From NCBI GenBank assembly GCA_963713925.1, contig OY970212.1, forward strand, positions 96,001 through 160,000: a stretch of DNA of 64,000 nt. The letters run 5' to 3'. This document shows, one piece after another, positions 45,446 through 45,982 of this stretch. The DNA comes from an uncultured bacterium (lineage in GTDB: Bacteria; Babelota; Babeliae; Babelales; Vermiphilaceae). The notes under the pieces were generated by a model. It made no database searches. It saw only the letters and a program-made list of their open reading frames with translations, and was not told the origin of the DNA. A program made the position numbers and the translations under genes. Each line of letters starts with the position of its first letter. The stretch's first letter is position 1.

Positions 45446-45561
45446 GAGCTTGTATGCAAATTAAGCTTTCTAACTAAAAAGGGCTGGTTGTCGAATGAAG
45501 TTCATGTTGAATTTGGGTAAAATAAAATAGTCTCCAATTCGTGATGAGCGGAACATCTAAT

Positions 45562-45982
45562 CGTTCGTGGTGAGCGGAGTTGCGGGCCCCATGCTTAAAG
45601 CATGGGTAAGAATGCAACGCAGTCGAACCATACGAACAAGAAAATAGATATGCAAGACTTTTATATATATATTCTTAAATGCAGTGACGGCTCATATTAT
45701 ACCGGCCATACGGATAATATCGAGCTGCGAGTTCAAGAACATGAAACCGGTCGGTATGAAGGTTATACCGCGACACGCCTGCCTGTACAGGTAGTTTTTA
45801 TTGAAGTAATGGCCTCTCGTGGGGATGCGTTGGAAGCAGAAATGCAAATTAAGCAATGGTCGCGTAAGAAAAAAGAGGTTCTTATTGAATATGGATGGCG
45901 AGGCATGAAAAGTTTTGCAAAAAGATATAAATAGGGAAGTTCGTATGGTTCGACTTCGTTTCACTTCGCTCACCACGAACGG
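45562..45982. repeat. Inverted pair of REP-like family B elements bracketing a GIY-YIG gene
   Basis: Left 45562-45637 CGTTCGTGGTGAGCG[..family C..]AGTCGAACCATACGAAC; right 45939-45982 GTTCGTATGGTTCGACT..CGCTCACCACGAACGG; partial copy near 45538. Confidence 0.9.
45650..45934 (+). CDS. Small stand-alone GIY-YIG nuclease family protein
   Basis: FYIYILKCSDGSYYTGHTDNIELR..EH..G...GYT..RLPV...A...E.QIK.WSRKKKE.LI; start moved out of the repeat. Confidence 0.93.
   Translation: MQDFYIYILKCSDGSYYTGHTDNIELRVQEHETGRYEGYTATRLPVQVVFIEVMASRGDALEAEMQIKQWSRKKKEVLIEYGWRGMKSFAKRYK

Follow-up and report, generated by a model that had tools for sequence, protein, structure and literature searches.

The GIY-YIG nuclease gene at 45650-45934 of the window (the whole 64,000-nt stretch analysed here) and the two inverted hairpins that flank it make up a cassette whose parts are gained together and lost together. 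The gene belongs to a UPF0213-like branch of stand-alone GIY-YIG proteins (B genes), and its pairing with the flanking hairpin (the B repeat) is real, general and branch-specific. The pairing principle itself was published in 2025, when Chenal et al. described the Ssn family (SsnA, cd10448) with its NTS/SRM hairpins (PMC11893778); the B branch would be an addition to it. Features are given in window coordinates, or in those of the single contig of this genome (G000:C1) where it is named.

8371-8682, plus strand: Ssn-type GIY-YIG gene (A), used as comparator
14776-14819, plus strand: unpaired B copy
32486-32509, plus strand: TIR-like motif, 86 nt upstream of the next B copy
32572-32644, plus strand: unpaired B copy, intergenic, with another hairpin in its 43-nt loop
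45521-45537, plus strand: outer flank, common to a second cassette and to several mini-units elsewhere in the genome
45538-45551, plus strand: extra 5' half of a B repeat, decayed, from the outer-flank alignment
45562-45637, plus strand: left B repeat, ending 12 bp 5' of the ATG
45584-45611, plus strand: family C hairpin, unrelated to B, within the left copy's loop
45650-45934, plus strand: stand-alone GIY-YIG nuclease gene (B gene), UPF0213-like branch, 94 aa
45939-45981, minus strand: right B repeat, inverted, with a 13-nt loop, starting 4 bp 3' of the stop codon
45982-46058, minus strand: outer flank, common to other B copies, with a TIR-like motif (46035-46058) at its end; MITE-like family
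G000:C1:724869-724971, 386215-386416, 777073-777357 and 1271592-1271837, and window 32486 and 46058: TIR-bounded MITE-like units, mostly enclosing or abutting B

The first-pass annotation had placed the gene tightly between inverted B copies and had located the two further copies in the window, and both observations hold at the coordinates above. Solo copies, which it noted elsewhere, are the minority: 73 of the 91 genome copies lie in inverted pairs and 18 alone, and the copy at 32572 is no plain solo, as it sits inside the TIR-like end at 32486. In the left copy, a tag and a 4-bp stem are followed by GA opposite GA, a single pair, a bulged T, a 46-nt variable loop and a 3' tail; the copy exceeds the quoted consensus length because a different hairpin, that of family C, occupies its loop. 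The family C hairpin has 31 copies in the genome, of which 9 lie inside loops of B and 20 no more than 80 nt from B. Family C-like hairpins were also seen at window positions 8098, 49965 and 51002.

The 94-aa product contains a single PF01541 domain (E 6.5e-17), and its structural model (pLDDT 87) has a GIY-YIG fold that best matches UPF0213 proteins (which we take to be cd10456), then Slx1, HIGLE and UvrC. The UPF0213/YazA/YhbQ proteins share its N-terminal motif and are its best matches in both sequence and fold (PDB 1zg2, E 8.7e-16, and 1ywl, E 3.1e-12, which are also ranks 1 and 2 in Foldseek). Residues Y7, Y17, G19, R27, H31 and E64 are all intact in the window protein and are 99-100% conserved among 136 B proteins, with Y7, Y17 and E64 at 100%. 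B proteins have C11, D13, R43 and P45 in common with the YazA type, and W70 and W83 in common with the Ssn type only; F4, H20 and K74 are particular to the B branch. Unlike the B gene, yazA lies in a fixed operon, trmNF-yazA-rsmI, without repeats, and its product is without W70, W83 and H20.

Identity of the B protein to the window's first GIY-YIG protein (A) is 35%, and the consensus identity between the B and Ssn-type branches is 33%. The profile scores of B proteins do not overlap, being 96-161 bits on the B profile versus 41-67 bits when scored with the A profile. A quick tree was built on 93 columns, with A-type proteins standing in for SsnA (one of them, at L131, is flanked by a near-perfect NTS); in it, the 30 A proteins form a clade with a support of 100 that excludes all 136 B proteins; judged by these sequence comparisons, the B protein is outside the Ssn clade. 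The B proteins were not supported as a single clade against the YazA-type rows of this tree, and one group with a support of 93 mixes Thermodesulfobacteriota with Beta- and Gammaproteobacteria.

The A gene is accompanied by repeats of the CGTC type, at approximately 8204-8229, 8331-8355 and 8795-8820, and B is not nearby. In this gene an Arg replaces the His kept in 97% of A proteins, and the 3' repeat is decayed and read through; the gene may be inactive.

Pairing across bacteria was examined in a first set of 99 loci (110 from an all-species scan and a phylum search, minus the locus in the window, 7 duplicates and 3 whose flanks were short). With a B detector that had been designed after viewing the flanks of this set, B was found within 200 nt of 94 of the 99 B genes, compared with 1 of 82 at 1 kb and none in shuffled sequence. 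A CGTC-type repeat was near none of the 99. Near Ssn-type genes, the CGTC-type repeat was present at 25 of 28 and B at 1 of 28. The detector was then frozen for held-out metagenome loci (80 new ones, minus 9 short and 2 duplicates, leaving 69), where it placed B within 200 nt of 62, on both sides in 44 and head-to-head as in the window in 42, with 2/35 at 1 kb and 0/69 after shuffling. All 7 misses have repeat variants that are visible by eye, and the CGTC-type repeat was again near 0/69. The frozen detector matched at 9 of the 9 top loci of a methanotroph family and found B at none of five viral loci. Among 276 pairs of phylum loci, only 3 had a neighbouring ORF in common; across phyla, the gene keeps its repeat beside it and the outer flanks vary. 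At L155 (G228:C1:1632705-1634870), two near-identical B cassettes with a variant repeat form a tandem with a separation of 890 bp.

A third small GIY-YIG branch (80 aa) was seen in this genome at G000:C1:1102682-1102921 on the minus strand, beside a tRNA-Thr gene, at L232/L236 and in relatives at L237-L260; it was matched in 159 of 261 phylum genomes. A tRNA was near 17 of 24 such genes, B near 1 of 24 and the CGTC type near none. A hairpin of their own was near 16 of 24 (0/19 far), by an ad hoc pattern that also matched near 7/22 B genes and 2/29 A genes. This hairpin seems also to use purine-purine mismatches. The rule that each GIY-YIG subfamily has a cognate repeat, as the annotation had it, thus extends to the three small stand-alone branches tested and breaks down at YazA/YhbQ-type and phage UPF0213-like genes, where the frozen detector found B or a CGTC-type repeat near 0/8. 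The independence of the two pairings in the window, which the annotation had also claimed, is doubtful because both repeats are built on one skeleton and both proteins have two tryptophans that are absent from the YazA type.

Syntenic sites that lack gene and repeat together were found in relatives, where the annotation had proposed that empty sites be sought. At the Methylophilus junction between yjbQ and a U32 peptidase gene, matched in 21 of 41 genomes, B-gene-B is present in 2 of 21 (both seed genomes), and gene and repeat are both absent in 19; seven of the empty junctions have a 9-10-bp spacer. The phaZ-fghA junction is filled in the seed, and 9 relatives with both genes in view are without gene and repeat (20 further relatives showed one gene only). 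Among the best 30 of 56 loci at the Sphingomonadaceae nrdR-trmJ junction, 3 are filled, 1 holds a solo B, 24 are empty and 2 are without trmJ; one filled site has decayed repeats only. Neither a target duplication nor a fixed end could be defined from these filled and empty sites or from flank alignments. At the Sphingomonadaceae locus L003:1495-2640, the GIY-YIG gene, translated B repeats and a SpoU methyltransferase form one 381-aa ORF. Similar long frames were observed at L039 and L076, and the cassette also lies between nrdR and trmJ at L190 and L191.

The genome-wide motif scan that the annotation had suggested returned 91 full B copies in the 1.32-Mb single-contig genome versus 0, 0 and 0 in three block shuffles. 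All except three of the copies (88/91) lie outside ORFs of at least 150 aa, which make up 79% of the genome, and B loops range from 3 to 95 nt, with other hairpins inside. A second intact B-gene-B cassette is present at C1:353921-354307, with the same 301-bp interior and different neighbours; its protein shows 81% amino acid identity to the window B protein at a dN/dS of 0.25, and the two gene copies appear to be under purifying selection. Four dispersed B pairs (mini-units) enclose a 64-65-nt remnant that represents both ends of the B gene, further gene remnants occur in two more pairs and two unpaired copies, and eight pairs enclose a 43-51-nt spacer with no relation to the B gene. The mini-unit remnant is inverted relative to the same outer flanks that surround the intact window gene. 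Among 4095 pairs of B copies, 92 share the 5' flank, 108 the 3' flank and only 11 both, which shows that flanks are exchanged at B. The second cassette, the deleted mini-units and the filled and empty sites agree with the idea of an autonomous unit that has non-autonomous copies; mobility by the enzyme, the other part of that idea, we only infer.

The annotation would have given way to a family B that was equally abundant without this nuclease clade and not preferentially adjacent to it, and B proved far commoner with the gene. The cross-genome correlation was assessed in a phylum survey of 260 other genomes with one fixed pattern, a B-branch gene being called at a best E of about 1e-17 or better. 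The median number of B copies was 32.5 in the 78 gene-bearing genomes versus 0 in the 182 without the gene, and at least 20 copies were present in 51/78 versus 14/182; related genomes are not independent samples, and p-values of these copy-number statistics, like those of adjacency, overstate. Within genera, 15 of 18 mixed genera agree and 3 go in the opposite direction. Six gene-bearing genomes had no pattern match, five of them with variant repeats around the gene and one with a truncated gene and no repeats.

In a second family (that of G264), the medians were 57 copies in 19 gene-bearing genomes and 1 in 101 gene-less ones. Of these gene-less genomes, whose completeness is unstated, 18 hold at least 20 copies; in this family, therefore, B repeats outlive the gene or have another driver. 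G279 and G310 hold 186 and 178 copies, and a PF01541 search gave no B-branch gene in either; these orphan populations would be useful to date gene loss. In five of the richest gene-less genomes, the search returned only YhbQ-type, UvrC-sized and rRNA-embedded genes and one other GIY-YIG gene, with no B beside the 9 of 14 loci examined. The GIY-YIG ORFs within 23S rRNA-like sequence, present in three copies in G310 (L183, L186 and L188), are probably intron homing endonucleases.

The cross-phylum B consensus combines a short 5' tag and a 4-bp stem with GA opposite GA, a single pair, a bulged T and a variable hairpin. Among 188 short-loop elements that were selected with no requirement for pairing, the covariation of all six tested pairs exceeds that in every one of 500 shuffles, and the Watson-Crick share in five stem pairs is 73-83%. 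A pyrimidine precedes GA in 275 of 275 elements, and G follows it in 260; a Y-GA-R context favours sheared GA pairs. C-GNA-G accounts for 53 of 109 distinct loops versus a shuffled mean of 11 and 14 in the reverse complement, and UUCG for 1. Tandem GA mismatches have been described to stack as sheared pairs (PMC8163305), and GNA/GNNA mini-hairpins to have far greater stability in DNA than in RNA (PMC13037366). We infer that B is a strand-specific ssDNA fold with tandem sheared G.A pairs and GNA loops, the opposite strand having TC facing TC. The mismatch core of B is constant and the sequence of its stem is not, so shape may matter more to the enzyme than sequence, and such a read-out would give an ssDNA nuclease orthogonal to SsnA.

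The window A repeat has the skeleton of B with GA paired to TC, and a B-branch gene at L152 (G082:C6:11003-12245) carries a hybrid repeat with a CGTC-type tag and tail and a GA/GA core. On these two grounds the B and CGTC-type repeat families may be sisters, the hybrid being a possible link between them.

The reading that we favour, with a probability of roughly 0.62, is that the enzyme binds the folded B strand and cuts on its tag side like SsnA, and that host repair between B copies then duplicates, inverts or removes the intervening DNA. SsnA is reported to cut ssDNA near its own hairpin and not to cut the reverse strand, dsDNA or RNA (PMC11893778). By analogy, the B nuclease would likely recognise the B hairpin on ssDNA and cut beside it, as Ssn nucleases do at theirs, with only one B strand folding into the recognised shape; if the cut fell on the side of the 5' tag, a head-to-head pair would be opened at both outer ends of the cassette. 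GIY-YIG domains hydrolyse DNA and cannot rejoin it, as established for the superfamily, so the copying would fall to host repair or recombination between B copies, and this route would leave mosaics, inversions and deleted mini-units where a transposon would have clean ends. The dispersed B copies would be non-autonomous targets able to outlive the gene, and the cassette likely spreads with the nuclease's help. Against this explanation counts the absence of replication strand bias (46 of 91 B copies on the leading strand), because a lagging-strand mechanism would predict a bias, and the gene-less repeat-rich genomes (18/101 in the second family, 14/182 in the phylum) count against nuclease-driven spread.

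The nuclease could instead be a domesticated host tool that cuts B on ssDNA and so restricts or steers incoming or transient ssDNA, with the repeats spreading otherwise and the cassette not spreading itself. SsnA is reported to modulate the integration of transforming DNA in Neisseria (PMC11893778), and the purifying selection on both gene copies in this genome, as well as the long-lived filled site in Sphingomonadaceae, partly fused in frame to trmJ, would agree with such a role. We consider it unlikely, as the gene has a selfish-looking distribution (patchy, in 78 of 260 genomes, with several copies per genome and broken copies), only 3 of 276 locus pairs share neighbours and the tree has cross-phylum clusters. 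It would also leave unexplained why copy number follows the gene.

A further candidate driver is a transposase acting in trans, either a DDE enzyme on a TIR-bounded MITE or one of the RAYT/IS200 type, with the GIY-YIG gene as a passenger that was captured once between two B copies and does not recognise them. A TIR-like motif is present 42 times in this genome versus once in a shuffle, by a matrix built from 26 of the 42 matches, and 32 of the 42 lie within 250 nt of B (3.8% expected). Most TIR-like matches are unpaired; nine inverted pairs of 103-337 bp were found, seven of which enclose full B copies. No target-site duplication was seen, and cassettes of other phyla show no such ends by eye. 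As 43 of the 91 B copies lie within 250 nt of such a motif, a MITE may have carried many of the genome's copies, and the repeat-rich genomes without the gene would also suit a transposase. We nevertheless find a passenger role quite improbable. The genome has no match to DDE_Tnp_1 or DUF4096, and thus no partner transposase from those two Pfam families, and its only trace of Y1_Tnp is a 30-residue relic. Across genomes, B copy number does not follow Y1_Tnp (the median is 2 in the 93 genomes that have it versus 1 in 167 without, and 36.5 in 50 that have the B gene and lack Y1_Tnp), and B lies beside 1 of 12 Y1_Tnp genes. Gene and repeat are kept adjacent across phyla while the outer flanks change, and the active site is conserved. 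That B is an RNA element, or a promoter or terminator regulating the nuclease gene and other genes, is very improbable: only 12 bp do separate the left copy from the start codon, hairpins are common after stop codons and covariation alone cannot separate RNA from DNA, but B orientation relative to neighbouring genes is 27:27, the loops are of the C-GNA-G type, much more stable in DNA than in RNA (PMC13037366), with a single UUCG, Rfam gave no match and neither repeat has a terminator-like or promoter-like site.

Several known systems resemble the B cassette. As in RAYT/TnpA(REP) with GTAG REPs, REPINs and BIMEs, an enzyme gene lies between cognate hairpins and many paired copies are without the enzyme; the RAYT, an HUH tyrosine transposase, is able both to cut and to rejoin DNA, whereas the B-flanked gene encodes a GIY-YIG protein and not an HUH Y1 enzyme, and B abundance is independent of Y1_Tnp. 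In Neisseria intergenic mosaic elements, pairs of dRS3 nuclease-target hairpins surround short recurring RS spacers with mosaic flanks. B differs from these in its repeat and its nuclease branch, and one of its spacer types is the nuclease gene or its deleted remnant.

The Ssn system is also close. The B protein is likewise a single-domain GIY-YIG protein of about 95 aa in which the Tyr, Tyr and Glu64 positions needed by SsnA are intact, and its gene likewise lies between inverted hairpins with a 5' tag, of which tens to hundreds of copies are scattered elsewhere. The differences are a separate protein branch with UPF0213-type C11, D13, R43 and P45, and a repeat with GA facing GA (GA is paired with TC in the Ssn type here), another tag and a loop of 3-95 nt. 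The cassette thus has neither the place inside the Ssn clade nor the SRM/NTS flanks of that system; the published SRM pattern occurred within 500 nt of 0/102 B loci and 10/29 A loci, and it also misses the A repeats of the window. The Ssn authors liken their layout to IS200/IS605 and REP/BIME and propose an IS-like reading (PMC11893778). UPF0213, cd10456 and two B 5-mers are absent from 14 supplementary files of that paper, the figures of which could include this branch. A 2026 preprint, in the part accessible, uses SsnA loci merely as a benchmark (10.64898/2026.09.22.753630). No literature on this B branch or repeat was found in the sources covered, which lie largely outside subscription journals.

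Like the CGTC REPs (CGTC-1 to -4) of Di Nocera et al. 2013, B repeats are small tagged stem-loops, mostly intergenic, often inverted dimers and away from transposase genes. In the CGTC REPs, the stem is a perfect 8-9 bp and the loop 4-5 nt (PMC3733652), unlike B with its 4-bp stem, tandem purine mismatch, bulged T and 3-95-nt loop. As far as the accessible text of that paper goes, no transposase was found for them, bulged types were possibly missed and GIY-YIG is not mentioned (PMC3733652).

With these results, the Ssn principle covers another large protein branch and probably a third one as well, and there is a candidate enzyme for an abundant repeat whose range runs from Dependentiae to Proteobacteria, Chloroflexota, Nitrospirota and Thermodesulfobacteriota. 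The origin and persistence of REP-like repeats without a transposase is treated as an open question in the CGTC REP paper (PMC3733652), and with a 94-aa protein and a 25-45-nt oligonucleotide it becomes directly testable. We suggest, tentatively and with more doubt than for the mechanism above, that this is a transposase-free mobile class, in which a minimal hydrolytic GIY-YIG enzyme would read a non-Watson-Crick ssDNA fold, with tandem sheared G.A pairs on a stem free to vary, and nick it, and host recombination would copy the cassette and seed tens to hundreds of repeats. At least three GIY-YIG branches, each paired with a hairpin of its own, would then act in parallel in one 1.3-Mb genome, and the nuclease would be the missing driver of a widespread, apparently unnamed repeat family.

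Two further observations were made in the window. At 16054-17334, at least nine tandem 123-bp units likely form a repeat-protein gene. A 33-nt inverted repeat of DnaA-box-like units at 24838-25025, close to the cumulative GC-skew minimum (C1:120416, window 24416), is a probable replication origin.
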